From a virus (taxonomy: Duplodnaviria > Heunggongvirae > Uroviricota > Caudoviricetes): 64,000 nt of DNA. Below the pieces are notes generated by a model, which did no database searches, was not told the DNA's origin, and worked only from the letters and a program-made list of their open reading frames with translations. The stretch is taken from the IMG/VR virus record IMGVR_UViG_2721755721_000001. One strand, written 5' to 3'. Position numbers and translations under genes: made by a program. This document shows positions 7,301 through 63,172 of this stretch, piece after piece; positions within the stretch are counted from its first letter, which is position 1; every line of letters starts with the position of its first letter.

Positions 7301-7313
7301 TAAATACATTACA

Positions 7314-8757: not shown

Positions 8758-8787
8758 TATGACCTCTGTTTTAAATTATAAGAGTAT

Positions 8788-31819: not shown

Positions 31820-31869
31820 AGACTTAACATATCCAGGGATTTGAAATCGATAAACCCTGATAAATATCC

Positions 31870-34454: not shown

Positions 34455-34801
34455 TGATATCTCTCCCTGCAGGTTCGCGTATCTGGCTGGTTGCAGGTAT
34501 CACCGATATGCGAAATGGCTTTAACGGCCTGGCATCAAAAGTTCAGAACGTCCTGAAGGATGACCCGTTCTCCGGACACCTGTTCATCTTCCGCGGACGC
34601 CGGGGTGACCAGATAAAAGTGTTGTGGGCTGACAGTGACGGACTGTGCCTCTTCACCAAACGCCTGGAGCGGGGCCGCTTCGTCTGGCCAGTCACCCGTG
34701 ACGGCAAGGTGCACCTTACTCCGGCTCAGTTATCCATGCTTCTTGAAGGTATCAACTGGAAGCACCCGAAACGAACGGAACGCGCTGGAATCCGCATATA
34801 A
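34454..34801 (+). CDS. IS66 Orf2-like protein (TnpB)
   Basis: 115 aa MISLPAGSRIWLVAGITDMRNGFNGLASKVQ..., characteristic IS66 orfB. Confidence 0.85.
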   Translation: MISLPAGSRIWLVAGITDMRNGFNGLASKVQNVLKDDPFSGHLFIFRGRRGDQIKVLWADSDGLCLFTKRLERGRFVWPVTRDGKVHLTPAQLSMLLEGINWKHPKRTERAGIRI

Positions 34802-34820
34802 CCCGTTGTAAAGTGAGGAT

Positions 34821-36392: not shown

Positions 36393-36422
36393 ATATCAAT
36401 ACGGTTCTGACGAGTCGCTTAC

Positions 36423-36713
36423 ATTACTGTTACTGTGGCACTGGAAATTGGTGGGTATCCGTCACTGTTGTTGCCTGATGTGGCGATTAGTCTTGACCGT
36501 ACTGAAGGAGCCACGCTGGAGTTTTACGAAGCTGAGGCGAAAAAGCAGGCGAAGCAGTTTTTCATGGATGTTGCTGCCGGGTTATGTGAAGGGGATGGTC
36601 CGTTGCCGGAAAAGCGGCCCATCATTTTAGAGGCGCAGGATGTGTTGATAACCTACAGAGGAAAACTACCGGGAATAATTACTGGTTCTCTGAAGACTCC
36701 ACCGCTGGCCTGA
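36423..36713 (+). pseudogene. 5'-truncated second copy of DUF1327-like gene (starts at IS66 junction)
   Basis: sequence after the IS right end aligns with 31527 onward of copy 1; N-terminal 22 codons missing. Confidence 0.7.
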
Positions 36714-36763
36714 AGACTTAACATATCCAGGGATTTGAAATCGATAAACCCTGATAAATATCC

Positions 36764-37297
36764 ATGAACACCAAAATCAGATACGGCCTGTCGGCTGCCG
36801 TTCTGGCGCTGATTGCCGCAGGTGCGCCTGCGCCTGAAATCCTCGACCAGTTTCTGGATGAAAAGGAAGGTAACCACACCACGGCATACCGTGATGGCGC
36901 GGGTATCTGGACCATCTGCCGCGGTGCCATTCTGGTGGATAGTAAACCTGTCGTCCCGGGCATGAAGTTGTCGAAGGAGAAATGCGACCAGGTTAACGCC
37001 ATTGAACGTGATAAGGCGCTGGCATGGGTGGAGAAAAACATCAAAGTGCCACTGACCGAACCCCAGAAAGCGGGGATCGCGTCATTCTGTCCGTACAACA
37101 TTGGTCCCGGTAAGTGTTTCCCGTCGACGTTTTATAAACGAATTAATGCAGGTGATCGCAGGGGAGCGTGTGAGGCGATTCGCTGGTGGATTAAGGACGG
37201 TGGCAGAGACTGCCGTATTCGTTCAAACAACTGCTACGGTCAGGTATCCCGTCGTGACCAGGAGAGCGCGCTGGCGTGCTGGGGTATCGACAGATAA
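36764..37297 (+). CDS. R: SAR endolysin, second diverged copy
   Basis: 177 aa, about 98 percent identical to 31870-32403 product. Confidence 0.8.
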   Translation: MNTKIRYGLSAAVLALIAAGAPAPEILDQFLDEKEGNHTTAYRDGAGIWTICRGAILVDSKPVVPGMKLSKEKCDQVNAIERDKALAWVEKNIKVPLTEPQKAGIASFCPYNIGPGKCFPSTFYKRINAGDRRGACEAIRWWIKDGGRDCRIRSNNCYGQVSRRDQESALACWGIDR

Positions 37298-37778
37298 GCA
37301 GAATATTTTGCTGAAAAATAAAGCATGGCCACGCGGGCGGATAACATGAAATCCTGCGAACTGGCGAAACGTAAGTGAATAAAAGTAAAAACCCCGTTTG
37401 TTGGCACCAAGCGGGGTTTTGTGTTTCTGACCTTGAGTAAGGCAAGGGAGAACATGGCGAAGTATAAACGAATTCTGTTGAGGTTGACCATGAAAAACGG
37501 CCTTGAACTGAAAGCGCCTGTAACTGATGACATCAGCAGAGCACTGGCTTTTGCCATTAAGTGGGTGGCGGTCGGTGTTGCTGTGTCCCCGATGCTGTAT
37601 GGGCTGGCAAAACTGGTCATTGCGTTGAAATCGTGAAGGGAGGATTAAGCATGTCAGACAAACTCATAACGCTGGCGAAGATCCTCTGTGTAATTGTCGG
37701 CATTTCATTTTCACTAATGCTGGTTGCTCTTTTTCTTTCCATGGCCTGGATGATGTTGTCTTCGTCGGGGCTGCTGGG

Positions 37779-38279
37779 GTGAACATAAACCGAATGCTTT
37801 CCGCGTTTATCGTTATTCTGCTGGTGGCCTGTGGTGCGCTGTGGATGGCAACAGACCATTACCGTGATAACGCGATTACCTACAAAGCGCAGCGCGATAA
37901 CAAAGCCAGTGAACTGAAGCTGGCGAACGCAACCATTACTGATATGCAGGTGCGCCAGCGCGATGTTGCTGCGCTCGATGCAAAATACTCGAGGGAATTA
38001 GCCGATGCGAGAGCTGAAAATGAAACTCTTCGCGCTGACGTTGCCGCTGGTCGTAAGCGCCTGCGGATCAACGCCACCTGTCCAGGCTCCGTGCGTGAAG
38101 CCCCCACCACCTCCGGCGTGGATAATGCAACCGGCCCCCGACTGGCAGACACCGCTGAACGGGATTATTTCATCCTCAGAGAACGGTTGATGACAATGCA
38201 GAAGCAGCTGGAAGGGGCGCAGGAATATATCCGCACTCAGTGCACTAAGCTGGCTTTTTATTATCCGGAGGATATATGA
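37779..38279 (+). CDS. Rz: Rz i-spanin, second copy (diverged N-terminus)
   Basis: 166 aa; C-terminal two thirds near-identical to copy 1, N-terminus differs. Confidence 0.75.
38020..38190 (+). CDS. Rz1: Rz1 o-spanin, second copy
   Basis: [15 protein letters not shown] lipoprotein signal, embedded in Rz copy 2. Confidence 0.7.
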
Positions 38280-38500
38280 AGAAATTACTGGTAACCGTAA
38301 AGCCTTTTCAGGGAACAATTCTGTTCCGTATTTTGCAGCGTGGTCGTGTTCTTGTTGAAGGTTCGTTCAGTGGTAAATGTACGCAATTACACTCCCGGAC
38401 CTTTCAGGTGAATGCCACGAATGAAGAGCTAACCGTTGAGTGTACGATGAATGCCGCTAAATGCCGCATGGTATCCGCTGCATTACAGCCAGTGTGTTGA
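38276..38500 (+). CDS. hypothetical small Cys-containing protein, second copy
   Basis: homolog of 33193-33417 product. Confidence 0.45.
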
Positions 38501-38823
38501 GCGACCTTATTATCCATGCGCGGTATTGTCGCCGTATTCCCGCATTAACAGAGACCGCAGCCCGACCGGGAGACTCCTCTTCGCGAGTGTGCGGGGATAA
38601 TCAAAAACGATACACACCGGGGTTTACCGCGTTAACGGAGCGCGGCGTTGCCCCTCATAGTCGCCTGTCCGGTGCGATGGTGGAAGAAGCCGGACGATGT
38701 GTTACCTCGCAAGCCCTGTTATGTGTCTGATTTGTGATTTAAGTCGGATAATTGTCGTTGCCATCAAGCAGAGGATTGATGACCGACAGGGTGGCATTGT
38801 TAGAATAAGACTTATTCTTATCT

Positions 38824-40194: not shown

Positions 40195-40758
40195 GTGCTG
40201 ACAACGCAAAAACGAAAATTTGCGCTGGCGCTCATGTCCGGGAAAAACAAAACAGCGTCAGCCATTGCCGCCGGTTATTCGGCGAAGACCGCCAGGGTTA
40301 AAGGCTCGCAGCTGGCAAAAGATCCGGAGGTGCTCGCGTTTATAGCCCGTAAACAGTGCGAGACGGTGGAGGTGGATGAGGTTCCTGTTTACCGGCAGAA
40401 AAAATCAGAGCAGGAGGATAAACCCCGTCGCCGTGAGGTGGCTGCAATACCACAGCCGGACGAAAACAATCCGGAGATGCCACCGTCCGCGGTGATGTCT
40501 CCTGGTATTGAATATATGGAGGATGGTCTTCCCGATCCGGTGAAAGCCATGGGGCGGATCCTGGTGGAAAACCTCTGCATTGATCCGAAACTGGCACTGG
40601 ATGCGGCCTGGCGTCTGGCGCAGTTCACGCACCATAAAAAAGGCGATGCCGGTAAAAAATCGGCAAAAGGTGATGCCGCGAAAAAAGCGGCTAACCGTTT
40701 TGCGGTGCCACCACCTCCCCGGCTGGTGGTGAATAACCAGAATGAGGAAAGCGGATGA
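40195..40758 (+). CDS. terminase small subunit
   Basis: 187-aa ORF directly upstream of and overlapping terminase large subunit. Confidence 0.65.
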   Translation: MLTTQKRKFALALMSGKNKTASAIAAGYSAKTARVKGSQLAKDPEVLAFIARKQCETVEVDEVPVYRQKKSEQEDKPRRREVAAIPQPDENNPEMPPSAVMSPGIEYMEDGLPDPVKAMGRILVENLCIDPKLALDAAWRLAQFTHHKKGDAGKKSAKGDAAKKAANRFAVPPPPRLVVNNQNEESG

Positions 40759-42416
40759 TACCTGTATGGAGCACGGCATGTCCGGACTGGGCAGAGCGCC
40801 TGCAAAAGGGACTGTCGATTATTCCGGCTCCGATTTATCCGGACCAGGCTGCACATGCCCTGGCGATTTTTAAACAACTGCGGATTGTGGATGCACCGGG
40901 TAGCCCGACGTTCGGGGAGTCCTGCGCACCGTGGGTGTTTGACCTGGTGGCGGCCCTGTTTGGCTCCTATGATGCGCAGACCGGTGTACGCCATATCAAG
41001 GAAGTGTTTATCCTTATCCCCAAGAAAAACAGTAAGTCCACGCTGGCCGCGGGGATCATGATGACGGCGCTGTTACTGAACTGGCGGCAGGCGGCGGGCT
41101 ACACCATTCTGGCCCCGACCGTGGAGGTGGCGGCCAACGCCTTCAACCCTGCCAGGGATATGGTGCGACGGGACGATGATCTGGATGACCTCTGTCAGGT
41201 GCAGACACATATCCGGACCATCACCCATCGGGTGACGGACACCACCCTGAAGGTGGTGGCAGCCGATCCGAATACGGTGTCCGGTATCAAGTCCGTGGGG
41301 ACACTGATTGATGAACTGTGGCTGTTTGGCAAGCAGTACAAAGCGGAAGACATGCTACGTGAAGCCATCGGCGGGCTTGCCTCCCGTCCGGAAGGATTTG
41401 TGGTGTACACAACCACCCAGTCGAATGAGCCGCCAGCCGGGGTGTTCAGACAGAAACTGCAGTACGCCCGGGATGTCCGTGACGGCAAAATTCATGATCC
41501 GCACTTTCTGCCGGTGATATTTGAACACCCTCCTGAAATGGTGGAAAGCGGGGCTCACCTGCTGATGGAAAACCTCGCCATGGTTAACCCGAATCTCGGT
41601 TATTCGGTGGATGAGGCTTTTCTGTACCGGGAGTACCGTAAAGCCCGGGAGGCTGGTGAGGAAGCATTTCGTGGCTTCATGTCAAAACACGCCAATGTGG
41701 AAATCGGTCTTGCCCTGCGTTCTGACCGCTGGGCGGGCGCGGATTTCTGGGAGCAGCAGGGCAGGCGCGTCAGCCTGGACGATATCCTGCAGCGCGCTGA
41801 TGTGGTGACGGTGGGGATTGACGGCGGGGGCCTGGATGATCTGCTGGGAATGTACGTGACTGGCCGTGACAGGGAAACCCGCGAATGGCTGGGCTGGGGC
41901 CATGCCTGGGTGCATGAAACCGCGGTGGTCAGACGGAAGAGTGAGGCATCCCGGTTTCAGGATTTTGTGGCCTGTGGAGACATGACGATTGTCCGTCGGG
42001 TCGGGGATGACACGGCGGAAGTGGCGGAGTATGTGCGTCGTATTCATGAGGCTGAGTTACTGGACCATATCGGTATTGACCCGTCAGGGGTGGGGCAGAT
42101 TCTGGATTCACTGGCGGAAGCCGGGATCCCCGATGAGAGTGTGGTGGGGATAAGCCAGGGCTGGAAGCTGGGCGGGGCCATCAAAACCACCGAGCGCAAA
42201 CTGGCTGAAGGGGTGCTGATTCACGGTGATCAGCCCCTGATGGCCTGGTGTGTCGGTAATGCCCGGGTGGAGCCTAAAGGTAACGCCATTCTTATCACCA
42301 AACAGGCCAGCGGACGGGGAAAAATTGACCCGCTGATGGCGCTCTTCAATGCGGTGTCCCTGATGTCCCTTAACCCGGAACCGAAAAAGAAAGCGTATGA
42401 GGTTTTTTTCATATAA
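40755..42416 (+). CDS. terminase large subunit
   Basis: 553 aa; typical size and position; ATPase/nuclease-type acidic motifs. Confidence 0.8.
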   Translation: MIPVWSTACPDWAERLQKGLSIIPAPIYPDQAAHALAIFKQLRIVDAPGSPTFGESCAPWVFDLVAALFGSYDAQTGVRHIKEVFILIPKKNSKSTLAAGIMMTALLLNWRQAAGYTILAPTVEVAANAFNPARDMVRRDDDLDDLCQVQTHIRTITHRVTDTTLKVVAADPNTVSGIKSVGTLIDELWLFGKQYKAEDMLREAIGGLASRPEGFVVYTTTQSNEPPAGVFRQKLQYARDVRDGKIHDPHFLPVIFEHPPEMVESGAHLLMENLAMVNPNLGYSVDEAFLYREYRKAREAGEEAFRGFMSKHANVEIGLALRSDRWAGADFWEQQGRRVSLDDILQRADVVTVGIDGGGLDDLLGMYVTGRDRETREWLGWGHAWVHETAVVRRKSEASRFQDFVACGDMTIVRRVGDDTAEVAEYVRRIHEAELLDHIGIDPSGVGQILDSLAEAGIPDESVVGISQGWKLGGAIKTTERKLAEGVLIHGDQPLMAWCVGNARVEPKGNAILITKQASGRGKIDPLMALFNAVSLMSLNPEPKKKAYEVFFI

Positions 42417-42479
42417 CCCTGCTCACCCTGTAACCATCATGAACCGCTGCGGCGGTTTTTTTATTTTCAGGAGGCTGAT

Positions 42480-42960
42480 GTGACTCTTAAACGGGCCTGT
42501 TCCCTGCTGACGGTGAAATCCTTCAGTGAGGATGAGCGGGTGATCACCGGGATTGCGTCAACGCCTTCTCCGGATCGGGATGGTGACATCCTGGAGCCGG
42601 AGGGCGCGGAGTTTGGCAGTGCGATCCCGTTTCTCTGGCAGCATGACCATTCCCGCCCGGTGGGGCAGTGTACGGTGCGCCGGGTCAGCGAAGGGCTGGA
42701 AATCACGGCAACACTGGCGAAGCCCGTGCCGGATATGCCATCGCAACTGGTTGCCCGGCTGGATGAGGCCTGGGCGGCCATTAAGACCGGGCTGGTCAGG
42801 GGGCTTTCCGTGGGCTTCCGTCCCCATGAATACACCTTTCTGGACGGAGGCGGACTGCATTTTCTGCGCTGGGAACTGATGGAGGTGTCTGCCGTCACCG
42901 TGCCCGCGAATGCGGAATGCACCATCCGGACCATTAAATCTTACGACCGCCCGTTTTCTG
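42480..42960 (+). pseudogene. prohead protease N-terminal fragment truncated at tandem-duplication junction
   Basis: identical start to the 44309 ORF, diverges after 42959 where sequence re-enters terminase (copy of 41136 onward). Confidence 0.7.
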
Positions 42961-44245
42961 CACTAACGCCTTCAACCCTGCCAGGGATATGGTACGACGG
43001 GACGATGATCTGGATGACCTCTGTCAGGTGCAGACACATATCCGGACCATCACCCATCGGGTGACGGACACCACCCTGAAGGTGGTGGCAGCCGATCCGA
43101 ATACGGTGTCCGGTATCAAGTCCGTGGGGACACTGATTGATGAACTGTGGCTGTTTGGCAAGCAGTACAAAGCGGAAGACATGCTACGTGAAGCCATCGG
43201 CGGGCTTGCCTCCCGTCCGGAAGGATTTGTGGTGTACACAACCACCCAGTCGAATGAACCGCCTGCCGGGGTGTTCAGACAGAAACTGCAGTACGCCCGG
43301 GATGTCCGTGACGGCAAAATTCATGATCCGCACTTTCTGCCGGTGATATTTGAACACCCTCCTGAAATGGTGGAAAGCGGGGCTCACCTGCTGATGGAAA
43401 ACCTCGCCATGGTCAATCCGAATCTCGGTTATTCGGTGGATGAGGCTTTTCTGTACCGGGAGTACCGTAAAGCCCGGGAGGCTGGTGAGGAAGCATTTCG
43501 TGGCTTCATGTCAAAACACGCCAATGTGGAAATCGGTCTTGCCCTGCGTTCTGACCGCTGGGCGGGCGCGGATTTCTGGGAGCAGCAGGGCCGTTGTATC
43601 AGCCTGGACGATATCCTGCGTCGTGCTGATGTGGTGACGGTGGGGATTGACGGCGGAGGGCTGGATGATCTGCTGGGAATGTACGTGATTGGGCGTGACC
43701 GGGAGACCCGCGAATGGCTGGGCTGGGGCCATGCCTGGGCGCATGAAACCGCGGTGGTCCGACGGAAGAGCGAGGCGTCCCGGTTTCAGGATCTTGTTGC
43801 CTGTGGAGATATGACCATTGTCCGGCGTGTCGGGGATGACACGGCGGAAGTGGCGGAATATGTGCGTCGCATTCATGAGGCTGAGTTACTGGACCATATC
43901 GGTATTGACCCGTCAGGGGTGGGGCAGATTCTGGATTCACTGGCGGAAGCCGGGATCCCCGACGGAATTGTGGTGGGGATAAGCCAGGGCTGGAAACTGG
44001 GCGGGGCCATCAAAACCACCGAGCGCAAACTGGCTGAAGGGGTGCTGATTCACGGTGATCAGCCCCTGATGGCCTGGTGTGTCGGTAATGCCCGGGTGGA
44101 GCCTAAAGGTAACGCCATTCTTATCACCAAACAGGCCAGCGGACGGGGAAAAATTGACCCGCTGATGGCGCTCTTCAATGCGGTGTCCCTGATGTCCCTG
44201 AATCCGGAACCGAAAAAGAAAGCGTATGAGGTTTTTTTCATATAA
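42961..44245 (+). pseudogene. duplicated 3' two thirds of terminase large subunit gene
   Basis: 42966-44245 aligns with 41136-42416 at about 97-98 percent identity; lacks N-terminal third. Confidence 0.7.
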
Positions 44246-44308
44246 CCCTGCTCACCCTGTAACCATCATGAACCGCTGCGGCGGTTTTTTTATTTTCAGG
44301 AGGCTGAT

Positions 44309-46246
44309 GTGACTCTTAAACGGGCCTGTTCCCTGCTGACGGTGAAATCCTTCAGTGAGGATGAACGGGTGATCACCGGGATTGCGTCAACGCCTTCTCC
44401 GGATCGGGATGGTGACATCCTGGAGCCGGAGGGGGCTGAGTTTGGCAGTACGATCCCGTTTCTCTGGCAGCATGACCATTCCCGCCCTGTAGGACAGTGT
44501 ACGGTGCGTCGGGTCAGGGAAGGGCTGGAAATCACGGCAATGCTGGTGAAGCCGGAGCCGGGGATGCCCTCCCAGATGGCAGCCCGGCTGGATGAGGCCT
44601 GGGCTGCCATTAAGACCGGGCTGGTCAGGGGGCTTTCTGTGGGCTTCCGGCCCCATGAATACACTTATCTGGACGGAGGCGGACTGCATTTTCTGCGCTG
44701 GGAGCTGATGGAGGTGTCTGCCGTCACCGTGCCCGCGAATGCGGAATGCACCATCCGGACCATTAAATATTTCGACCGCCCGTTTTCTGCCGCGTCCGGC
44801 AACCGGAAACCGGTGGTGAAAATCGCATCTTCTGCCGGCGCTGCGGCACAGTCAATAACCTCTTTTCATAAGGAAAAGTCAGCAATGAATACTGGTGAAC
44901 AGATTAAAAGTTTTGAAAACAAGCGTGCGGCGCTGGCAGCCTCCCTTGAGGAGATCATGAACAAAGCCGCAGAGGAAGGCCGCACACTGGATGTGGAAGA
45001 GGAAGAGCACTACGACAACACCGCAGCGGAAATCCGTCAGGTGGATGCGCACCTGAAGCGTCTGCGTGAACTGGAAACCAGTAAGGCCGCCACGGCACAG
45101 CCGGTGAAACAGGCCGGTAACGGGAATGTGGCCACGGTGGCTTCAGCGCCGGTGATCCGTGTTGAGCAGAAACTGGAGAAGGGGATTGGTTTCGCCCGCT
45201 TTGCCAAATCACTGGCCGCGGCTAAAGGTGTCCGCTCTGAAGCCCTGGAAGTGGCCCGTCGTCAGTATCCGGATGACAGCCGTCTGCATCATGTCCTGAA
45301 ATCGGCGGTGGGGGCAGGGACCACCACGGACCCACAGTGGGCAGGCAGCCTGTCTGAATATCAGGAATATGCGCAGGACTTTATTGATTACCTGCGTCCG
45401 CAGACCATTATCGGGCGATTTGGTCAGGGCGGGATCCCTGCACTTCGTCAGGTGCCGTTCAATATCCGCGTGCATGCCCAGGTGTCCGGCGGTGCTGCCA
45501 GCTGGGTGGGGGAGGGTAAGGCCAGACCCCTGACGAAGTTTGATTTTGAGTCCATCACCTTCAGTCATGCGAAGGTGTCGGCCATTGCGGTACTGACGGA
45601 AGAGCTGATCCGTTTTTCCAGTCCGGCAGCTGATGCGCTGGTCCGTAATGCGCTGGCAGAAGCGGTGGTGGCGCGTCTGGACACAGACTTTGTGGACCCG
45701 AAAAAAGCCGCAGTGGCAGATGTCTCCCCGGCGTCCATCACCCATGATGTGAAGGGCACGGCATCAACCGGTAACCCGGATGCGGATGCCGAGGCGGCGT
45801 TTGGCCAGTTTGTGGCAGCAAACCTGCAGCCCACCGGTGCGGTCTGGCTGATGTCCAGCACCAATGCCCTGGCACTGTCCATGCGTAAAAATGCGCTGGG
45901 TCAGAAGGAATACCCGGACATGACCCTGCTGGGTGGCTCCTTCCAGGGGCTGCCGGTGATTGTCTCCCAGTACGTGGGTGACCAGCTGGTGCTGGTGAAT
46001 GCCCCGGATATTTATCTGGCGGATGACGGCGGTGTGGCAGTGGATATGTCCCGTGAAGCGTCACTGGAAATGCAGTCTGAGCCGGGCGGCGACAGCACCA
46101 CACCGTCGCCGGTGGAGCTGGTTTCCATGTTCCAGACCGGCAGCGTGGCCATCCGTGCGGAGCGCTGGATCAACTGGCGTCGTCGCCGTACTGCGGCGGT
46201 GGCTGTGATCACCGGTGTGAACTACGGCAGTGCGTCCGGCGGCTGA
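44309..46246 (+). CDS. prohead protease - major capsid protein fusion (HK97-like)
   Basis: 645 aa; N-terminal protease-like region followed by capsid-like domain. Confidence 0.7.
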   Translation: MTLKRACSLLTVKSFSEDERVITGIASTPSPDRDGDILEPEGAEFGSTIPFLWQHDHSRPVGQCTVRRVREGLEITAMLVKPEPGMPSQMAARLDEAWAAIKTGLVRGLSVGFRPHEYTYLDGGGLHFLRWELMEVSAVTVPANAECTIRTIKYFDRPFSAASGNRKPVVKIASSAGAAAQSITSFHKEKSAMNTGEQIKSFENKRAALAASLEEIMNKAAEEGRTLDVEEEEHYDNTAAEIRQVDAHLKRLRELETSKAATAQPVKQAGNGNVATVASAPVIRVEQKLEKGIGFARFAKSLAAAKGVRSEALEVARRQYPDDSRLHHVLKSAVGAGTTTDPQWAGSLSEYQEYAQDFIDYLRPQTIIGRFGQGGIPALRQVPFNIRVHAQVSGGAASWVGEGKARPLTKFDFESITFSHAKVSAIAVLTEELIRFSSPAADALVRNALAEAVVARLDTDFVDPKKAAVADVSPASITHDVKGTASTGNPDADAEAAFGQFVAANLQPTGAVWLMSSTNALALSMRKNALGQKEYPDMTLLGGSFQGLPVIVSQYVGDQLVLVNAPDIYLADDGGVAVDMSREASLEMQSEPGGDSTTPSPVELVSMFQTGSVAIRAERWINWRRRRTAAVAVITGVNYGSASGG

Positions 46247-46512: not shown

Positions 46513-47822
46513 GAGAAGTGGGCTGGCGGTCCCTGTTTCAGGCGGTGGCTGAGCCTTTTGCCGGTGCCTGGCAGCAGGGTGTGAAAGCCGATCCGGAAAC
46601 CGTTTTGTCCTTTCACGCGGTGTTTTCATGCATTTCGCTGATATCCCAGGATATTGCCAAAATGCGGCTTCGCCTGATGCAGACTGATGTACAGGGAATA
46701 CGCCGGGAAAAGCGGCAGGGAGATACTGCCCGTCTCTGTCGTCGTCCTAATGCACAGCAGAATCGCATCCAGTTTTTTGAACTGTGGCTGAATTCCAAAT
46801 TGCGTCACGGCAATACGGTGGTGCTGAAAATCCGCAACCACCGGGGGCAGATCAAAGAACTGCGTATTCTGGACTGGAGCCGGGTTGAACCTCTGGTGGC
46901 GGATGACGGCGACGTGTTCTACCGCATCACGCCGGACCGGAACTGTGGGATCACGGAGGCGGTGACGGTGCCTGCCCGGGAGGTGATCCACGACCGTTTT
47001 AACTGTTTTTTTCATCCGCTTGTGGGGCTGCCGCCGGTGTATGCCGCAGGACTGGCCGCCATGCAGGGGCATCATATTCAGGCAAATTCGACGTATTTTT
47101 TCAGAAATGGCGGGCGACCATCAGGCGTGATTGAGGTCCCCGGCAGTATTACGGAAGAAAACGCGAAAAAACTGAAGGGGAACTGGGACAGCGGATATAC
47201 GGGCGAAAATGCGGGGAAAACGGCCATACTGAGCAACGGGGCAAAATACAGCCCTACGACGTTTTCACCGGTGGATGCGCAGACGGTGGAACAACTGAAA
47301 ATGACGGCTGAAATTGTCTGTTCGGTGTTCCGTGTCCCGGCCTACAAGATTGGCGTTGGCCACCCGCCTTCCAGTGACAACGTGGAGGCGCTGGAGCAGC
47401 AGTATTATTCCCAGTGTCTGCAGACGCTGATTGAGTCCATTGAGCTGTTACTGGATGAGGCGCTGGAAACGGGGGAAAACGAGAGCACGGAGTTTGACGT
47501 CACCACGCTGCTGAGAATGGACAGCGAACGGCGCATGAAAACACTGGGTGAATCGGTGAAAAATACGCTTCTCACGCCCAATGAGGCCCGTAAACGTGAG
47601 AACCTGCCGCCCCTTGCGGGAGGTGATGCACTGTATCTTCAGCAGCAGAACTACAGTCTGGAGGCGCTGTCCCGTCGTGATGCCCGTGAAGATCCGTTTG
47701 CGTCGTCCGGGAAAAGAGTTTCAGCCCAACTGCCTGACGGCGCATCTGACGGTAATAAGGCAATCAGTGAAACAGAGCATGGTGCGTTGAAAGCGATGTT
47801 GAGGGGGATACTGCGAAAATGA
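46458..47822 (+). CDS. portal protein
   Basis: 454 aa, size and position; start uncertain. Confidence 0.65.
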   Translation: MWNLLRRTRKNQKSGRDVREVGWRSLFQAVAEPFAGAWQQGVKADPETVLSFHAVFSCISLISQDIAKMRLRLMQTDVQGIRREKRQGDTARLCRRPNAQQNRIQFFELWLNSKLRHGNTVVLKIRNHRGQIKELRILDWSRVEPLVADDGDVFYRITPDRNCGITEAVTVPAREVIHDRFNCFFHPLVGLPPVYAAGLAAMQGHHIQANSTYFFRNGGRPSGVIEVPGSITEENAKKLKGNWDSGYTGENAGKTAILSNGAKYSPTTFSPVDAQTVEQLKMTAEIVCSVFRVPAYKIGVGHPPSSDNVEALEQQYYSQCLQTLIESIELLLDEALETGENESTEFDVTTLLRMDSERRMKTLGESVKNTLLTPNEARKRENLPPLAGGDALYLQQQNYSLEALSRRDAREDPFASSGKRVSAQLPDGASDGNKAISETEHGALKAMLRGILRK

Positions 47823-48556
47823 CGGAACGGGAACTGTCCATTATTCGTGCACTGGGCGAAGAATTCGCCACGGTGCTGGCGGATTTACAGCACACATTTG
47901 AGGAGAAGATGGCCGCGCAGGCACAAGCGTTTGAAGAGAAACTGGCTTCCCTGTCGGCGGTATTACAGAAGCATGTGACGGTGGATGAGGTACATCCGGT
48001 TCTGCAGGCGATGGTGGATGACGCTGTGGGGGCCATTTCGGTACCGCGTGATGGTCGTGACTACGATCCCGATGTTCTGCGGAAGGCGGTTCTGGAGGCG
48101 GTGAATGCCCTTCCGGCTCCGCAGGACGGGCGTGATGCCACGGCACTGGAAGTGCTCCCCGCTATTGACGATCAAAAATCCTTTCCCCGGGGCACGTATG
48201 CCACACACCTGGGTGGACTCTGGCGGGCGTATGAAAAAACGCACGGGATGCGGGGATGGGAATGCCTGGTTGACGGGGTGGCGGATATCGACGTCAGCAT
48301 GACGGATGAGCGGTTGTTCTCTGTGGTGATCCGGCAGAGCAGTGGCCAGTGTACGGAAAAAACATTTTCCCTGCCGGTGATGCTCTACCGCGGTGTGTTC
48401 AGAGCCGGTGAAACCTACCACCCCGGCGATACGGTGACGTGGGGGGGCTCGCTGTGGCACTGCAACAGTATGACCGGTGATAAACCCGGAGAAGCTCATT
48501 CATCAGGCTGGACCCTGGCTGCAAAACGTGGACGGGATGCAGGAGGCGGAAAATGA
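47819..48556 (+). CDS. hypothetical head-associated protein
   Basis: 245-aa ORF coupled to portal gene. Confidence 0.4.
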   Translation: MTERELSIIRALGEEFATVLADLQHTFEEKMAAQAQAFEEKLASLSAVLQKHVTVDEVHPVLQAMVDDAVGAISVPRDGRDYDPDVLRKAVLEAVNALPAPQDGRDATALEVLPAIDDQKSFPRGTYATHLGGLWRAYEKTHGMRGWECLVDGVADIDVSMTDERLFSVVIRQSSGQCTEKTFSLPVMLYRGVFRAGETYHPGDTVTWGGSLWHCNSMTGDKPGEAHSSGWTLAAKRGRDAGGGK

Positions 48557-54500: not shown

Positions 54501-54782
54501 GCCTTTGCAAAAGGGGCGGGACTGATGGGGGAGGCCGGACCTGAAGCCATTATGCCTCTGACGCGGGCGGCGGATGGCTCGCTGGGTGTGCGAGCGGTGG
54601 GCAGTATGTACGGCAGTGCGGGTCTGGTGTATTCCCCGGTCTACCATATCGCCATTCAGAATGACGGGACTAATGGCCAGATAGGGCCGGAGGCGGCAGG
54701 CAGCCTTGTGCAACTGATTGACCAGCGGGTGCAGGCGGTGATGCTGTCCATGCGACGTGACGGAGGAATGCTGAGTGGCTGA
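51540..54782 (+). CDS. H: tail tape measure protein
   Basis: 1080 aa, helix-rich with repeats, position after G/GT. Confidence 0.85.
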   Translation: MATLRELIIKISANSQSFQSEIQRASRMGSEYYRTLQNGGRQAAAAAREQRRALAELNSQLTEIRASAVGMAGAFAGAFATGHLISLADEWSSVNARLKQASQSSDEFSSSQKVLMDISQRTGTAFSDNAALFARSAASMREYGYSAGDVLKVTEAISTGLKISGASTAEAGSVITQFSQALAQGVLRGEEFNSVNESGDRIIRALAAGMGVARKDLKAMADDGQLTADKVVPALISQLGTLRDEYAAMPETVSDGITKVENAFMAWVGGANEASGATKTLSGVLNGVAGNIDNVATAAGALVAVGVARYFGNMASGAMSATAGLVTAARNEVALAEAQFRGTQIATARARAAVYRAQQAVAAARGTEMQIAAEARLVATQERLNRNIAARSAAQNALNSTTAVGSRLMSGALGLVGGVPGLVMLGAAAWYTLYQNQEQARESARQYALTIDEIAHKTPSMSLPEASDNEGRTRAALAEQNRLIDEQASRVKSLQEKIAGYQYVLANPGWTTGDGFMINHLTSVKTVTEGLSQATEQLAVEQSRLAQMQEKAQSIQDVLAGLEDRRVALIRQQAAEQNKVYQSMLVMNGQYTEFNRLLGLGNELLQQRQGLVNVPLRLPQATLDDKQQSALTKTERELALSRLKGEEKERVRLGYAADDLGFVGEPYQEARQRYISNALEAWRNNEANKPKSRGGKSETEKAEDSFSRLLKQQKEQLALAGQNTELAKLKYQTAQGELKTLTEMQKQELLRNAALIDQQKIREQLRSREETLKNDNVAARASNEAELLGYGQGERLRERMRELQQIRDSFRQKDADLQSQYQTGDISEDFYRQALAQNAQYLSERLKEQEAFYAESDVQRADWQKGLQEGFSNWVDNASDYASQAAQLATEGISGMVNNITEMLNGNKVEWRSWASSVLQEISKVLMNAAIVNGIKTAANGMSGAGGFLGSIGDWLGGAVANAKGGVYTSANLSAYSNSIVDTPTYFAFAKGAGLMGEAGPEAIMPLTRAADGSLGVRAVGSMYGSAGLVYSPVYHIAIQNDGTNGQIGPEAAGSLVQLIDQRVQAVMLSMRRDGGMLSG

Positions 54783-55116
54783 GATAAAAACGCTGCATCT
54801 GGTCCCGCGTGAAGGGATGCAGGTGAGTGAGAAGCCGTCGGTGGTGAGGGTGCGGTTTGGTGACGGTTATGAACAGCGCCGCCCCACAGGGCTGAATCCT
54901 CAACTGAAGACGTTTCAGGCGGTGTTCCGGGTGACGGATGAGTCAACCCGGCGCTGGCTGGAAGAGTTTTTATCGTGGCATGGTGGTTACCGTGCCTTTT
55001 TGTGGCGACCGCCGAAACATAACCGGACGGTGAGGGTTGTGTGCCGTGAGTGGAGTGTCACGGATAATGCCCGGTACAGTGATTTCAGTTGCACGATAGA
55101 GCAGGTGGTGAACTGA
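54775..55116 (+). CDS. M: minor tail protein M
   Basis: 113 aa; VRFGDGYEQRRPTGLN...FLW...EQVVN resembles lambda M. Confidence 0.85.
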   Translation: MAEIKTLHLVPREGMQVSEKPSVVRVRFGDGYEQRRPTGLNPQLKTFQAVFRVTDESTRRWLEEFLSWHGGYRAFLWRPPKHNRTVRVVCREWSVTDNARYSDFSCTIEQVVN

Positions 55117-55814
55117 TGCAGGATATTCACGAAGAAAGCCTGAACGAGTCGGTTAAATCAGAGCAGTCACCGCGGGTGGTACTCTGGGAAATCGACCTGA
55201 CGGTACAGGGCGGTGAGCGGTATTTTTTCTGCAATGAGCTGAATGAAAAAGGGGAGCCGGTGACCTGGCAGGGGCGGAAGTACCAGGCATACCCGATTGA
55301 CGGCAGTGGCTTTGAGATGAACGGGAAGGGCAGCAGTGCCCGCCCGTCGCTGACGGTGTCGAATCTGTTTGGTCTGGTCACCGGGATGGCGGAGGACCTG
55401 CAGAGCCTGGTGGGGGCCACGGTGGTCCGCCGCCGGGTGTATGCCCGTTTTCTGGATGCGGTGAATTTTGTGGCAGGCAATCCGGAAGCGGACCCGGAGC
55501 AGGAGCTGAGCGACCGCTGGGTGGTGGAGCAGATGTCATCGCTGACGGCCATGACGGCCTCGTTTGTGCTGGCGACACCGACGGAGACGGACGGGGCGCT
55601 GTTTCCCGGTCGCATCATGCTGGCGAATACCTGTATGTGGACCTACCGCTCTGATGAGTGTGGTTACACGGGCGGGGCTGTGGCGGATGGGTTCGATAAA
55701 CCCACCACCGATATCCGTAAGGACAGATGCAGCAAGTGCATGCGCGGGTGTGAGATGCGCGGCATGGTGGCTAATTTTGGCGGTTTCCTTTCCATTAATA
55801 AACTTTCGCAGTAA
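55116..55814 (+). CDS. L: minor tail protein L
   Basis: starts MQDIHEESLN; high similarity to lambda L (FVLATPTETDGALFPGRIMLANTCMWTYR). Confidence 0.85.
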   Translation: MQDIHEESLNESVKSEQSPRVVLWEIDLTVQGGERYFFCNELNEKGEPVTWQGRKYQAYPIDGSGFEMNGKGSSARPSLTVSNLFGLVTGMAEDLQSLVGATVVRRRVYARFLDAVNFVAGNPEADPEQELSDRWVVEQMSSLTAMTASFVLATPTETDGALFPGRIMLANTCMWTYRSDECGYTGGAVADGFDKPTTDIRKDRCSKCMRGCEMRGMVANFGGFLSINKLSQ

Positions 55815-55824
55815 ATCCCGGTTT

Positions 55825-56568
55825 ATGACACAGACTGAATCAGCGATTCTGGCGCATGCCCGGCGGTGTGCGCCTGCGGAGTCGTGCGGCTTCGTGATAA
55901 GCACGCCGGAGGGGGAGCGGTATATCCCTTGTGTGAATATTTCCGCAGAGCCGGAGGCGTATTTTCGTATCGCACCGGAAGACTGGCTGCGGGCAGAGAT
56001 GCAGGGGGAGATTGTGGCACTGGTCCACAGTCATCCCGGTGGGCTGCCCTGGCTGAGCGAGGCTGACCGGCGGCTGCAGATAAAAAGTGCACTGTCCTGG
56101 TGGCTGGTCTGCCGGGGGGAAATTCACAAATTCCGCTGCGTGCCGCACCTGACCGGGCGTCGTTTTGAGCACGGGGTGACGGACTGTTACACCCTGTTCC
56201 GGGATGCCTACCATCTGGCGGGGATAACGCTGCCGGATTTTGTGCGTGAGGATGACTGGTGGCGCAACGGTCAGAACCTTTACCTGGACAATATGGCGGT
56301 CACCGGCTTTTACCGGGTGCCCCTGTCCTCTGCACAGGCGGGCGATATCCTGCTGTGCTGCTTTGGCGCATCGGTGGCCAATCATGCCGCCATTTACTGC
56401 GGCAACGGTGAACTGCTTCACCATCTGCCTGAACAACTGAGTAAACGGGAGAGGTATTCCGAAAAATGGCAACGACGAACGCATTCTGTCTGGCGTCACC
56501 GCCACTGGCACGCATCTGCCTTCACGGGGATTTACAACGATTTGGCCGCCGCCTCAGCCTGTACGTGA
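55825..56568 (+). CDS. K: tail assembly protein K (JAB/MPN plus NlpC/P60-like)
   Basis: starts MTQTESAILAHARRCAPAESCGF; HSHPGG motif; near-identical to lambda K as recalled. Confidence 0.85.
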   Translation: MTQTESAILAHARRCAPAESCGFVISTPEGERYIPCVNISAEPEAYFRIAPEDWLRAEMQGEIVALVHSHPGGLPWLSEADRRLQIKSALSWWLVCRGEIHKFRCVPHLTGRRFEHGVTDCYTLFRDAYHLAGITLPDFVREDDWWRNGQNLYLDNMAVTGFYRVPLSSAQAGDILLCCFGASVANHAAIYCGNGELLHHLPEQLSKRERYSEKWQRRTHSVWRHRHWHASAFTGIYNDLAAASACT

Positions 56569-57146
56569 ACACGGCAGCGGAAGCCATCCGGGCGCTGTCG
56601 TTACAGGTGCCGGGATTCCGCCGTCAGATGAACGAAGGCTGGTACCAGATACGTATTCGCGGTGAGGACACGGCACCGGAGGCGGTGTACGCCCGTCTTC
56701 ACGAACCTCTGGGTGAGGGGGCGGTCATCCATATTGTGCCGCGACTGGCCGGAGCCGGAAAGGGCGGACTGCGGATTGTGCTGGGGGCGGCAGCCATCGT
56801 GGGCTCTTTCTTCACTGCCGGAGGCTCGATGGCGTTATGGGGTACAGCCCTGAGTGCCGGTGGTTTTTCTGCCACCACGATGCTGTTTTCACTGGGTGCC
56901 AGCATGATTCTGGGTGGTGTGGCCCAGATGCTGGCACCGAAGGCAAAAACACCGGATTACCGCGCAACGGATAACGGTAAACAGAACACGTATTTTTCGT
57001 CACTGGACAATATGATTGCCCAGGGTAACCCGATGCCGGTGCCTTACGGGGAAATGCTGGTTGGTTCACGACGGATATCCCAGGACATCAGCACCCGTGA
57101 TGAAGGCGGGGGCGGAAAGGTCGTGGTTATCGGGCGGCAGGGGTAA
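56466..57146 (+). CDS. I: tail assembly protein I
   Basis: 226 aa; ARICLHGDLQRFGRR...NGKQNTYFSSLDNM resembles lambda I. Confidence 0.8.
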   Translation: MATTNAFCLASPPLARICLHGDLQRFGRRLSLYVNTAAEAIRALSLQVPGFRRQMNEGWYQIRIRGEDTAPEAVYARLHEPLGEGAVIHIVPRLAGAGKGGLRIVLGAAAIVGSFFTAGGSMALWGTALSAGGFSATTMLFSLGASMILGGVAQMLAPKAKTPDYRATDNGKQNTYFSSLDNMIAQGNPMPVPYGEMLVGSRRISQDISTRDEGGGGKVVVIGRQG

Positions 57147-57381: not shown

Positions 57382-60300
57382 ATGGGCAAAGGTGGCGGCA
57401 AGGCGCACACACCGCGCGAGGCGAAGGACAATCTCAAATCCACGCAGATGATGAGTGTGATTGATGCGATTGGTGAGGGACCGATAGAAGGCCCGGTGAA
57501 AGGCCTGCAGAGTATTCTGGTGAACAAAACCCCGCTGACGGACACGGACGGTAATCCCGTGATACACGGTGTGACGGCGGTCTGGCGCGCCGGGGAGCAG
57601 GAGCAGACACCACCGGAAGGCTTTGAGTCCTCCGGAGCTGAAACCGGACTGGGCGTGGAAGTGACGAAGGCAAAACCGGTGACGCGCACCATTACGTCTG
57701 CGAACATTGACCGCCTGCGGGTTACCTTCGGGGTGCAGTCACTGGTGCAGACCACGTCAAAGGGCGACCGTAATCCTTCCTCTGTCCGGATTCTGATTCA
57801 GTTACAGCGTAATGGCCGCTGGGTGACGGAAAAGGACGTCACCATTAACGGCAAGACCACCTCACAGTTCCTGGCCTCGGTGATTCTGGAGAATCTGCCT
57901 CCCCGGCCCTTTAACATCCGGATGGTCAGGGAGACGGCGGACAGCACCACGGACCAGCTGCAGAATAAGACGCTCTGGTCGTCATACACCGAAATCATCG
58001 ATGTGAAACAGTGCTACCCGAACACGGCCATTGTGGGGCTGCAGGTGGATGCGGAGCAGTTCGGCGGCCAGCAGATGACGGTGAACTACCATATCCGCGG
58101 TCGCATCATTCAGGTACCGTCAAACTATGACCCGGAAAAACGCACGTACAGCGGCATCTGGGACGGCAGCCTGAAACCGGCATACAGCAACAACCCGGCC
58201 TGGTGCCTGTGGGACATGCTGACTCACCCGCGCTACGGCATGGGAAAACGCCTGGGGGCCGCGGATGTGGACAAGTGGGCGCTGTATGCCATCGGGCAGT
58301 ACTGTGACCAGCGTGTCCCGGACGGCTTCGGAGGGACAGAGCCGCGGATGACCTTTAATGCGTACCTGTCACAACAGCGTAAGGCGTGGGACGTTCTCAG
58401 TGATTTCTGCTCGGCGATGCGCTGTATGCCGGTATGGAACGGCCAGACGCTGACGTTCGTTCAGGACCGCCCGTCGGATGTGGTGTGGCCGTACACCAAC
58501 AGCGATGTGGTGGTGGATGATAACGGCGTGGGGTTCCGCTACAGCTTCAGCGCCCTGAAGGACCGCCACACGGCGGTGGAGGTGAATTACACCGACCCGC
58601 AGAACGGCTGGCAGACCTCCACGGAACTGGTGGAAGACCCGGAAGCCATACTGCGCTACGGGCGCAACCTGCTGAAGATGGATGCGTTCGGTTGCACCAG
58701 TCGCGGTCAGGCCCACCGTGCCGGGCTGTGGGTGATAAAGACCGGACTGCTGGAAACGCAGACGGTGGATTTCACGCTCGGGTCACAGGGGCTGCGTCAC
58801 ACACCCGGTGACATTATTGAAATCTGTGATAACGACTATGCCGGGACCATGACCGGCGGACGTATCCTGTCCATCGATGCCGCCAGCCGCACCCTGACAC
58901 TGGACCGTGAGGTGACCCTGCCGGAGACCGGTGCCGCCACGGTGAACCTGATTAACGGCAGCGGTAAGCCGGTGAGTGTGGACATCACCGCACACCCCGC
59001 GCCGGACCGGATACAGGTCAGCACCCTGCCTGATGGTGTGGAGACATACGGTGTATGGGGACTATCCCTGCCGTCACTGCGCCGTCGCCTGTTCCGCTGT
59101 GTCTCCGTCCGGGAAAACACGGACGGCACCTTTGCCATCACGGCGGTGCAGCACGTACCGGAAAAAGAAGCCATCGTGGATAACGGTGCCCGCTTTGAGC
59201 CGCAGTCAGGCACCCTGAACAGCGTCATCCCTCCGGCAGGTGCAGCACCTGACGGTGGAGGTGAGCGCAGCTGACGGCCAGTATCTGGCGCAGGTGAAAT
59301 GGGACACGCCGCGGGTGGTGAAGGGCGTGCGCTTCAGTCTGCGCCTGACCAGTGGAAGCGGTCAGGACAGCCGTCTGGTGACCACCGCCATCACCGCGGA
59401 TACAGAGCACCGTTTCAGCGGTCTGCCGCCGGGGGAATACACCCTGACGGTCAGGGCGATTAACAGTTATGGCCAGCAGGGGGAACCGGCCACCACCACG
59501 TTCAGGATTAATGCACCTGCGGTACCCGCCACGATTGAGCTGACACCGGGCTATTTTCAGATAACAGCGGTCCCGCGTCTTGCGGTGTATGACCCGACGG
59601 TACAGTTTGAGTTCTGGTTTTCGGAGACAAAAATCGCAGATACATCTCAGGTGGAAACCTCTGCCCGTTATCTGGGGACCGGCAGTCAGTGGAGTGTATC
59701 CGGCCCGCACATTAAGCCCGGGAAGGATTTCTGGTTTTACGTGCGCAGCGTCAACCTGGTGGGGAAATCTGCTTTTGTGGAAGCCAGTGGCCGGGCCAGC
59801 AATGATGCAGAAGGGTATCTGGGGCTGTTTCGGGAAAAAATAGGAAAACTGCATCTGGCTCAGGGGCTGTGGGAGCTGATAGACAACAGCCAGCTTGCGG
59901 ATGAGATGGCGGAGATGAAGACCACCATCACAGAAACCCGCAATGAAATCACGCAGACGGTCAGTAAAACCCTGGAAGACCAGAGTGCCACCATACAGCA
60001 GATACAGCGGGTGCAGACAGACACAAATAACGACCTGGCTGCGCTGTATATGCTGAAGGTGCAGAAAACGAAAAACGGCATTCCGTATGTTGCCGGTATA
60101 GGTGCGGGGATTGAGGATGCTGATGGCCAGCCCCTGAGCAATATTCTGCTGCAGGCAGACCGTATCGCGATGATTAACCCGGAGGACGGCAACAGCACGC
60201 CGTTATTTGTGGCGCAGGGGAATCAGTTGTTCATGAACGATGTGTTCCTGAAGCGGCTGTTTGCGGTGAGTATCACCTCGTCCGGCAATCCCCCGACGTT

Positions 60301-60856
60301 TTCCCTGACGCCGGAGGGCAGGCTGACCGCAAGAAATGCTGATATCAGCGGTAACGTGAATGCGAATTCCGGGACGCTCAACAACGTCACGATTAACGAG
60401 AACTGTCGGGTTCTGGGAAAACTGTCCGCGAACCAGATTGAAGGCGATCTCGTTAAAACAGTGGGCAAAGCTTTCCCCCGGGATTCCCGTGCACCGGAGC
60501 GGTGGCCATCAGGGACCATTACCGTCAGGGTTTATGACGATCAGCCGTTTGACCGGCAAATTGTTATTCCGGCGGTGGCATTCAGCGGCGCTAAACATGA
60601 GAGAGAGCATACTGATATTTACTCCTCATGCCGTCTGATAGTGCGGAAAAACGGTGCTGAAATTTATAACCGTACCGCGCTGGATAATACGCTGATTTAC
60701 AGTGGCGTTATTGATATGCCTGCCGGTCACGGTCACATGACGCTGGAGTTTTCGGTGTCAGCATGGCTGGTAAATGACTGGTATCCCACAGCAAGTATCA
60801 GCGATTTGCTGGTTGTGGTGATGAAGAAAGCCACCGCAGGCATCAGTATCAGCTGA
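57382..60856 (+). pseudogene. J: host specificity protein J, split by a frameshift near 59238
   Basis: two ORFs (57382-59274 and 59240-60856) in different frames together span a lambda J homolog; frames switch at CCGGCAGGTGCAG. Confidence 0.75.
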
Positions 60857-60923: not shown

Positions 60924-61523
60924 ATGCGTAAACTTTATGCCGCCATTTTGTCCGCAGCCATTTGTCTGGCCGTATCCGGTGCGCCTGCATGGGCGTCTGA
61001 ACATCAGTCCACGCTGAGCGCGGGGTATCTTCATGTCTCGACGAACGTTCCTGGCAGCGATAATCTTAACGGGATTAACGTGAAATACCGTTATGAATTC
61101 ACGGACACGCTGGGGCTGGTGACGTCATTCAGCTATGCAGGAGACAGGAATCGCCAGCTGACCCGTTACAGCGATACCCGCTGGCATGAAGATTCCGTTC
61201 GTAACCGCTGGTTCAGCGTGATGGCGGGGCCCTCTGTGCGCGTGAATGAATGGTTCAGTGCGTATGCGATGGCGGGCGTGGCTTACAGCCGTGTGTCGAC
61301 TTTTTCCGGGGATTATCTCCGCGTAACTGACAACAAGGGGAAAACGCATGATGTGCTGACCGGAAGTGATGACGGTCGCCACAGCAACACGTCTCTGGCG
61401 TGGGGAGCTGGCGTGCAGTTTAACCCGATCGAATCCGTGGCCATTGATATTGCTTATGAAGGCTCCGGCAGTGGCGACTGGCGCACTGACGGGTTCATCG
61501 TGGGTGTCGGTTATAAGTTCTGA
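60924..61523 (+). CDS. lom: Lom outer membrane protein (Ail/Lom family)
   Basis: 199 aa; signal peptide; beta-barrel pattern ending GFIVGVGYKF. Confidence 0.85.
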   Translation: MRKLYAAILSAAICLAVSGAPAWASEHQSTLSAGYLHVSTNVPGSDNLNGINVKYRYEFTDTLGLVTSFSYAGDRNRQLTRYSDTRWHEDSVRNRWFSVMAGPSVRVNEWFSAYAMAGVAYSRVSTFSGDYLRVTDNKGKTHDVLTGSDDGRHSNTSLAWGAGVQFNPIESVAIDIAYEGSGSGDWRTDGFIVGVGYKF

Positions 61524-61581: not shown

Positions 61582-62901
61582 GTGAATATGGCAGTAAAGA
61601 TTTCAGGTGTACTGAAAGACGGCACAGGAAAACCGGTAGAGAACTGCACCATTCAACTGAAAGCCAGACGGACCAGCAGCACGGTGGTGGTGAACACGGT
61701 GGCCTCTGAAAATCCGGATGAAGCCGGTCGTTACAGCATGGACGTTGAGTACGGTCAGTACAGCGTCATTCTGTTGGTGGAGGGCTTCCCGCCGTCACAT
61801 GCCGGGACCATCACCGTGTATGAAGATTCTCAACCCGGTACGCTGAATGATTTTCTCGGTGCCATGTCGGAGGATGACGTCCGGCCGGAGGCACTGCGCC
61901 GTTTTGAACTGATGGTGGAAGAGGTGGCGCGTCACGCCGGGGAGGCGAAGAAGAATGCCGGAGAAGCAGAGACGTCCGCGAGGAATGCCGGCATATCAGC
62001 CAGTAAGGCAGAAGAGAGCGCTGCACATGCTGACACTTCAGCAGGGGATGCATCGGAGTCAGCCCGGCAGGCGGCAGAAAGTGCAGCCGCTGCAAAGAAG
62101 TCAGAGGAAGCGTCCTCGTCCTCGGCCTCTGAGGCCGCTCAAAAAGCCAGTGAGTCATTACAAAGTGCAGCAGATGCTGAGTTGTCAAAAAAGACGGCAG
62201 AAAGTGCAGCCGGTAATGCAGCCAGGGATGCAACGACCGCAACAGAAAAAGCCCGGGAGTCAGCAGAAAGCGCACAGTCAGCGGAACAAAGCAGGATAGC
62301 GGCGGAAGAGGCCGTAAACCGAATCCCCACCGTGGTGGGACCTCCCGGGCCAAAGGGGGAACCGGGGCCCGTGGGTCCTCAGGGGCCGAAGGGTGATAAG
62401 GGAGAGCGCGGTGACACCGGCCCTGTCGGGGCAACCGGCGAACGGGGACCGGCAGGTGATGCTGGTCCGGCAGGCCCGCAGGGGCCGAAAGGCGACAGGG
62501 GAGAGCGGGGAGAGACCGGGCTGACAGGAAGTACAGGTCCACAGGGGCCAAAGGGAGATACCGGGGCAACAGGCCCGGCAGGCCCACAGGGACCGAAAGG
62601 AGAAACAGGTGCGGCTGGCCCGGTGGGGGCAACCGGACCTCAGGGACCAAAGGGCGACCCGGGGGAGACACAAATCCGTTTTCGTCTGGGGCCGGGAAAC
62701 ATTATTGAGACAAACAGCAATGGCTGGTTCCCGGATACAGATGGTGCGCTCATCACCGGACTGACCTTTCTTGACCCCAAAGATGCCACACAGGTTCAGG
62801 GGCTGTTTCAGCATTTGCAGGTCAGATTTGGTGACGGGCCGTGGCAGGATGTTAAGGGGCTGGATGAAGTGGGCAGTGATACAGGCAGAACAGGAGAATG
62901 A
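61582..62901 (+). CDS. stf: side tail fibre protein (Stf-like) with collagen-like Gly-X-Y repeats
   Basis: N-terminus [26 protein letters not shown] like lambda Stf; long GPxGxKG collagen-like repeat run; only 439 aa. Confidence 0.8.
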
Positions 62902-62903
62902 CA

Positions 62904-63172
62904 TGAATATACTAAAAAAACTTATGCAGCGTCTGTGTGGTTGCGGAAAGCATGATGACCGTGAACACGGGGAGTTACTTACAGCACAGCTGCGGCTGGG
63001 ACCGGCAGACATTCTGGAGTCAGATGAGAATGGCATTATCCCGGAGCAGGCCAGGGTAATCACGCAGGTGGTGATACTGGATGCGGATAAAAAGCAGATA
63101 CAGTGCGTGGTAAGACCGCTGCAAATCCTGCGTGCTGACGGGACGTGGGAAAATATTGGCGGAATGAAATAG
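62904..63172 (+). CDS. hypothetical protein downstream of tail fibre
   Basis: 89-aa ORF from ATG 62904 (MNILKKLMQRLCGCGK...). Confidence 0.4.

Follow-up and report, generated by a model that had tools for sequence, protein, structure and literature searches.

A one-base insertion splits tail gene J of a lambdoid Escherichia coli prophage between two reading frames

The DNA analysed here is a stretch of 64,000 nucleotides (nt), hereafter the window, which corresponds to the reverse strand of GenBank record CP010238.1 (GCA_001901405.1, Escherichia coli strain S50) at approximately 420-484 kb and is 100% identical to it over every base compared. It carries a lambdoid prophage, and the subject of this study is gene J of that prophage, which encodes the tail-tip protein gpJ and is interrupted as recorded. 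The features of the locus, including the two half open reading frames (half-ORFs) into which the gene is divided, are as follows:

57382..60856, plus strand: the whole J gene (tip attachment and host specificity), interrupted; it spans exactly the gpJ coding sequence (3474 nt) annotated in relatives
57382..59274, plus strand: upstream half-ORF in frame 1; 619 native J residues, then 11 out-of-frame residues, with TGA at 59272-59274
59239..59240, plus strand: one-base insertion, GG in place of the single G of intact alleles; the frame shifts after codon 619
59240..60856, plus strand: downstream half-ORF in frame 2; J residues 620-1157, comprising Ig_J/FNIII-1, Ig_J_second/FNIII-2, the tail-tip fibre, and the receptor-binding domain

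The two half-ORFs overlap by 35 nt in different frames, and the upstream one begins at ATG 57382, the gpJ start annotated in relatives, with the mechanically called ORF reaching back to TTG 57340. A preliminary description of this DNA had proposed that the two ORFs jointly make up a complete lambda-type J, and our analyses bear this out. When one G (59239 or 59240) is removed, the gene becomes 3474 nt long, i.e., 1157 codons followed by a terminal stop and free of internal stops, and its product is collinear with gpJ, showing 98.1% amino acid identity to WP_106875741.1 without gaps. The intact length had been given as 1160 codons, which is slightly too long, as the actual protein has 1157 amino acids (1158 codons with the stop). 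In a tblastn comparison with the J of an intact relative, residues 1-619 mapped to frame 1 (57382-59238) and residues 620-1157 to frame 2 (59240-60853). Chance similarity is not an issue here, as each half matches gpJ with E = 0.

The frame switch itself could be placed exactly. It had been located within CCTCCGGCAGGTGCAGCAC (window positions 59230-59248) and attributed to an extra G, which proved correct to the base: the alignment of 59170-59310 to three intact gpJ genes (O157:H7 TR01, strain 2015C-3107, and the Stx2a_1447 phage), a comparison proposed at that time, contains a single gap at 59239/59240, where the window reads GCAGGTG and all of the others read GCAGTG, with one G fewer. The lambda J sequence given for this site in the preliminary description also agrees, as lambda gpJ (PDB 8iyk) reads PPAVQHLT there. 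The extra G stands in the public record CP010238.1 as well, and therefore was not produced when the window was cut out. In that record, the 3.8 kb separating gpI from lom have no protein entry, which would fit J having been annotated as a pseudogene there. The locus thus carries a small insertion or deletion (indel) of 1 nt relative to intact orthologues, the lesion is private, and, in place of the one uninterrupted ORF of a functional gpJ, a stop follows 11 codons after the frame change. Judged from these alignments, the locus is by descent a gpJ-family gene and, as written in the record, a putative pseudogene.

We then considered which parts of the protein lie on either side of the break. 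A Pfam domain search with the J translation from which one G had been removed (hereafter repaired J) returned six gpJ domains, all above the cut-offs (E 1e-23 to 1e-41):

Residues 86-207 of repaired J: FNIII-A_GpJ
Residues 330-498 of repaired J: Phage-tail_3
Residues 609-712 of repaired J: Ig_J
Residues 714-814 of repaired J: Ig_J_second
Residues 871-998 of repaired J: Phage_Tail_Tip
Residues 1027-1157 of repaired J: Ig_GpJ_C (receptor binding)

Repaired J also matched lambda gpJ (8iyk_J) with E = 0, covering residues 1-834 and 863-1156. The N-terminal part of lambda gpJ consists of hub domains HDII to HDIV with FNIII-A, followed by FNIII-1, FNIII-2, the central fibre domain, and the receptor-binding domain (PMC10721106). 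The break after residue 619 falls just within the first Ig/FNIII domain (Ig_J begins at residue 609). Translation from ATG 57382 would accordingly give a 630-residue product, with 619 native and 11 aberrant residues, that would retain the hub-forming domains under the tail tube and would lack both Ig/FNIII domains, the central fibre, and the C-terminal receptor-binding domain. For the downstream half-ORF, GTG 59240, the codon of Val620, is the first possible start after the stop in that frame. Direct reading of 59220-59300 revealed no correctly spaced Shine-Dalgarno sequence before GTG 59240, 59255, 59261, or 59294; the sole nearby GGAGG (about 59257-59261) abuts GTG 59261 without a spacer, and the next in-frame GTG (59294) is approximately 30 nt further on. 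Because GTG 59240 has no Shine-Dalgarno sequence, and the downstream 538 codons of J appear to have no ribosome-binding site of their own, we infer that these codons are not translated efficiently and are most likely silent or poorly expressed. At best, the prophage alone could then assemble tails devoid of the central fibre and the receptor-binding tip, and such particles would be expected to be non-adsorbing and non-infectious. This expectation would hold for the prophage on its own, and other prophages in the same cell might complement or repair the defect.

Having located the lesion, we evaluated its distribution among relatives. A 201-bp (base pair) query centred on the insertion site was searched by BLAST against 5,426 complete RefSeq E. 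coli genomes, a set from which the CP010238.1 genome is absent, and detected 8,735 J-like places in 3,127 of these genomes. None of the places matched the query at 100%; the top matches (99.5%) aligned 200 record bases to the 201 query bases, with the extra G as the sole difference. Similarly, a 40-mer with the extra G had 0 exact matches in viral, metagenome, and species-representative genome contig collections, and the 39-mer without it matched exactly at 58 viral loci. At the protein level, the best 120 homologues of repaired J are all uninterrupted and 1137-1178 amino acids long, except for one aberrant entry of 1882 amino acids, and the best identity among them is 97%; the best J match at the nucleotide level in the complete genomes is 96.9%. 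Exact look-ups of Lom, gpI, and the tape-measure protein of the prophage all pointed to CP010238.1. The exact tape-measure protein is present solely in this record, with no second assembly of this prophage in the collections searched, and its Lom and gpI are common to many prophages, which carry other J alleles. As far as these comparisons reach, the J lesion is private to one lineage and is not a conserved feature of the family.

Two explanations of the split were put forward in the preliminary description, a J pseudogene and a sequencing error, and the evidence leaves both standing, with no serious third reading; a conserved or programmed frameshift is excluded by the finding that the extra G occurs in no relative. 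Our preferred reading, to which we assign a probability of about 0.65, is that the extra G is a real and very recent inactivating mutation of J, present in the DNA of the strain. Several lines of evidence favor it. The run at the site consists of two G only and is a poor substrate for homopolymer errors, so that a classical error of this kind is less likely than had been suggested. Over positions 1-10261, the window aligns to an independent genome in a single stretch without gaps, at 100.0% identity. Furthermore, when 88 annotated proteins of related prophages were compared with the window, about 45, those of all the head and tail genes among them, matched essentially over their full length and in a single frame, and a split between frames was seen for J alone. 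Locally, the assembly appears to be of good quality, given the gap-free identity over 10,261 bp and the approximately 45 unbroken proteins.

Several observations weigh on the other side. Only one assembly shows the extra G, and exact look-ups of both half-ORF products in the protein collection found neither of them; each half of J, compared with four intact alleles, has a ratio of non-synonymous to synonymous polymorphism (pN/pS) of 0.06-0.11, indicating strong purifying selection; and a second lesion is absent from both halves. As far as can be judged from the alleles compared, the selection signature and the absence of a second lesion would fit a very young mutation and a sequencing error equally well. 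The same facts enter into the second explanation, a sequencing or consensus error, according to which J of strain S50 would be intact (1157 amino acids) and the extra G would exist only in the deposited CP010238.1. The insertion is unique to that single record, the removal of one base restores a perfect full-length J with no other defect, and the C-terminal half, supposedly untranslated, is under the same strong purifying selection as the N-terminal half. In addition, two unusual duplications in the prophage, whose copies are 96% identical (described below), could be joins between contigs of paralogous prophages, which would lower trust in the region, although they could also be real recombination products. 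An error would nevertheless have to have arisen at a GG rather than in a long homopolymer, in a window where comparison with relatives reveals no other gene with a broken frame and where 10.26 kb align to an independent genome without a single indel. The record is also listed as NZ_CP010238.1, E. coli strain S50, among the comparison genomes of an earlier study (PMC6385356), and its presence in RefSeq by 2019 argues against an assembly filled with frameshifts. A paper on E. coli from Marmota himalayana (PMC5180367), which reports Illumina drafts only, makes no mention of S50. As genuine disruptions of J are, moreover, frequent in related prophages, we regard an error in the record as possible but rather unlikely.

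A third explanation, that the split is used or tolerated, with the halves made as separate polypeptides (a hub and a fibre/receptor part) or with a ribosomal +1 shift producing full-length J, is in our view highly improbable. The idea draws on the break coinciding with the domain boundary where the hub domains give way to FNIII-1, and on the 35-nt overlap of the ORFs, which makes termination-reinitiation conceivable. However, the split occurs in no relative and hence is not a conserved arrangement, and both GTG 59240, which lacks a Shine-Dalgarno sequence, and GTG 59261, which is not spaced from the GGAGG near 59257-59261, would be poorly placed for reinitiation. A programmed ribosomal frameshift was considered and rejected, as every homologue examined is single-frame at the site and the shift site is not conserved; to our knowledge, CCG-GCA-GGT is not among the known +1 shifty sites. 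Phage T5 offers some precedent by spreading the equivalent parts over the separate proteins pb3, pb4, and pb5, but its pb3/pb4 boundary lies after FNIII-2 and not before FNIII-1 (PMC10721106). A naturally split hub, fibre, and receptor of the T5 type was likewise rejected, given that the downstream part has no ribosome-binding site and that no relative is split here. The most specific version, in which a working tail tip would form by non-covalent association of the 630-residue hub fragment with a C-terminal fragment made by reinitiation, is less credible still, with the domain-boundary position of the break as what speaks for it; it would be mildly novel and, if true, would provide a snapshot of a single-chain gpJ evolving toward the T5 pb3/pb4/pb5 arrangement.

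Returning to the preferred reading of a real, recent mutation, we next describe the prophage in which J resides. It extends from position 10262 onward in lambda order: exo-bet-gam, N, cI, O, P, the nin region, Q, lysis, terminase, head, tail, J, lom, and stf. J itself stands after M, L, K, and I and before lom and stf, as in annotated relatives, and these neighbors and one mobile element located further upstream are as follows:

54775-55116, plus strand: M-like tail-tip gene, intact, in lambda order
55116-55814, plus strand: L, tail-tip gene, intact, in lambda order
55825-56568, plus strand: K, intact; aligns over residues 1-246 of 247
56565-57146, plus strand: I, tail-tip gene, intact, in lambda order
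60924-61523, plus strand: lom, intact, downstream of J, in synteny with relatives
61588-62901, plus strand: N-terminal part of the side tail fibre with collagen-like repeats, intact
62903-63172, plus strand: C-terminal part of the side tail fibre, intact
33777-36392: IS66-family element with three ORFs, between two copies of the lysis cassette

The M-like, L, K, and I genes each align in one frame, ungapped, and over essentially their full length to the annotated proteins of a relative, with 93-100% identity. Other parts of the prophage are less regular. The lysis cassette (a ydfR-like gene, lysozyme, and Rz) is present twice, at 31529-33606 and 36423-38688, with identities of 96% and 87.5%, and the second copy begins within the ydfR-like gene (codon 19). 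The IS66-family element between the copies has a right end, CGCTTAC, at 36416-36422, and a search for its inverted repeats did not find a matching left end. This arrangement suggests either recombination between two prophages mediated by the insertion sequence or a chimeric join across it. A tandem duplication of 1,829 bp follows, with copies at 41136-42961 and 42965-44790 that are 96.3% identical without gaps. The duplicated segment comprises two-thirds of terL, at its 3' end, and the protease-capsid gene up to codon 160-170, and relatives have it in a single copy. One intact terL (40755-42416) and one intact capsid gene (44309-46246) remain after the duplication, together with junction fragments at 42480-43064 and 42989-44245. 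On inspection, the junction contained no Ns and nothing else pointing to a scaffolding artefact, and the duplication could stem from genuine recombination of two related prophages or from a join made during assembly. No integrase was found at the exo-side end of the prophage. Because of the IS66-family element, the 1.83-kb duplication, and this missing integrase, J is unlikely to be the sole obstacle to the element behaving as a phage, and it would be too simple to state that J alone disables it.

A second broken gene was at one point suspected, as the NCBI pipeline annotates this region in two relatives as one "phage portal protein, frameshifted"; these are really two ORFs, i.e., a portal gene of 454 amino acids and a repeat-containing gene, that overlap by ATGA. 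The 486-nt difference in length arises because the number of copies of a 162-nt repeat differs while the frame is kept, and it is no defect. The gene following the portal gene in the window (47819-48556; positions 8488-9711 in relative locus L063) encodes 245 amino acids, compared with 407 amino acids (353 in one contig) in relatives, and its length varies with the in-frame copy number of this 162-nt (54-amino-acid) tandem repeat.

The surroundings of the prophage were examined as well. Positions 1-10261 hold a P4-like satellite, with a primase (TOPRIM/DUF927), psu, an ogr/delta-like gene, and an integrase (8788-10122), which is 100.0% identical to one located at tRNA-Arg (argW) in strain Z1323HEC0108 and ends in 12 nt of tRNA-Arg (10250-10261). 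An ORF of 66 amino acids on the minus strand (10335-10535), with a weak, sub-threshold match to HTH_17, and a 16-nt tRNA piece at 10555 separate it from the lambdoid prophage, and beyond the right end of the window lie IS1, a kinase of the OspG type, intS, and the full argW tRNA. The arrangement resembles a tandem array at argW in which the prophage is wedged between the P4-like satellite and the intS/argW side. Within the prophage, the Q antiterminator gene (26806-27429) and an SASA/DUF6645 esterase gene (28966-30816) flank the position that is occupied by stx1A/B in closely related prophages; here, an STM1630-family gene (27708-28421) and a DUF3927 gene (28510-28665) stand in place of stx1A/B. 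In its early and late regulatory region, the prophage is an stx-free relative of Stx1 phages.

Overall, the split J belongs to a known class, that of a frameshifted structural gene in a decaying prophage, or is a one-base error in a record; it represents no novel type of system and raises no new question in biology. For annotation, the prophage of S50 as deposited should be scored as tail-defective, and J as a frameshifted pseudogene rather than as two "tail proteins". If the extra G were a sequencing error, the sole consequence would be the correction of one GenBank record.

Comparison with lambda places the allele in context. Lambda gpJ (PDB 8IYK, 8K35, and 8XCG) has the same domain order, with FNIII-A, hub domains, two Ig/FNIII domains, the tail-tip fibre, and a C-terminal receptor-binding Ig domain, and the lambda tail region has the same neighborhood of M-L-K-I-J-lom-stf, whereas in the S50 prophage the frame is broken after residue 619. 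The S50 allele is of the 1157-amino-acid type common in prophages of enterohaemorrhagic and enteropathogenic E. coli (best matches 96.9% at the nucleotide and 97-98% at the amino acid level), compared with 1132 amino acids in lambda gpJ, and its fibre and receptor part is more diverged from lambda than its hub part (292 vs 1423 bits). J is essential for lambda tail assembly and adsorption. Lambda offers a parallel in its stf gene, in which Hendrix and Duda reportedly described, in 1992, a frameshift in laboratory lambda relative to Ur-lambda. As with J of S50, one frameshift in lambda PaPa distributes a tail gene over two ORFs within an otherwise normal tail region; the difference is that stf encodes dispensable side fibres, without which the phage stays infectious, and J is essential. 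This difference in stf between laboratory lambda and Ur-lambda is also mentioned in PMC10721106.

Lesions of this class are well known among prophages of pathogenic E. coli. Nearly all of the lambdoid prophages of O157 Sakai carry frameshifts, deletions, or insertions of insertion sequences, with defective host-specificity functions in Sp12, Sp14, and Sp15 by our reading of Table 1 in that study, and in E. coli with multiple prophages such defects are open to complementation or recombinational repair by other prophages (PMC2669165). The Sakai prophages Sp1-Sp18 (Asadulghani et al. 2009, PMC2669165) share the morphogenesis type and similar classes of lesions with the S50 prophage; that study measured induction, packaging, and rescue, and the S50 prophage belongs to a different strain and carries a private lesion known from sequence alone. 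Closer to the present case, J is disrupted at other positions in 4 of the 17 independent full-length related loci that were fetched. The J of Z1323HEC0393 (locus L062, 18360-21753) has an 80-nt deletion near codon 490-510 and is annotated as "phage tail tip protein, frameshifted"; the breaks in loci L070 and L080 lie near codons 1030-1048; and locus L068 has multiple lesions. These alleles affect the same gene, by small indels and within near-identical prophage tail modules, at positions and through events different from those of the S50 lesion. As a data point on prophage decay, such independent disruptions make J appear to be a frequent casualty in the prophages of E. coli.

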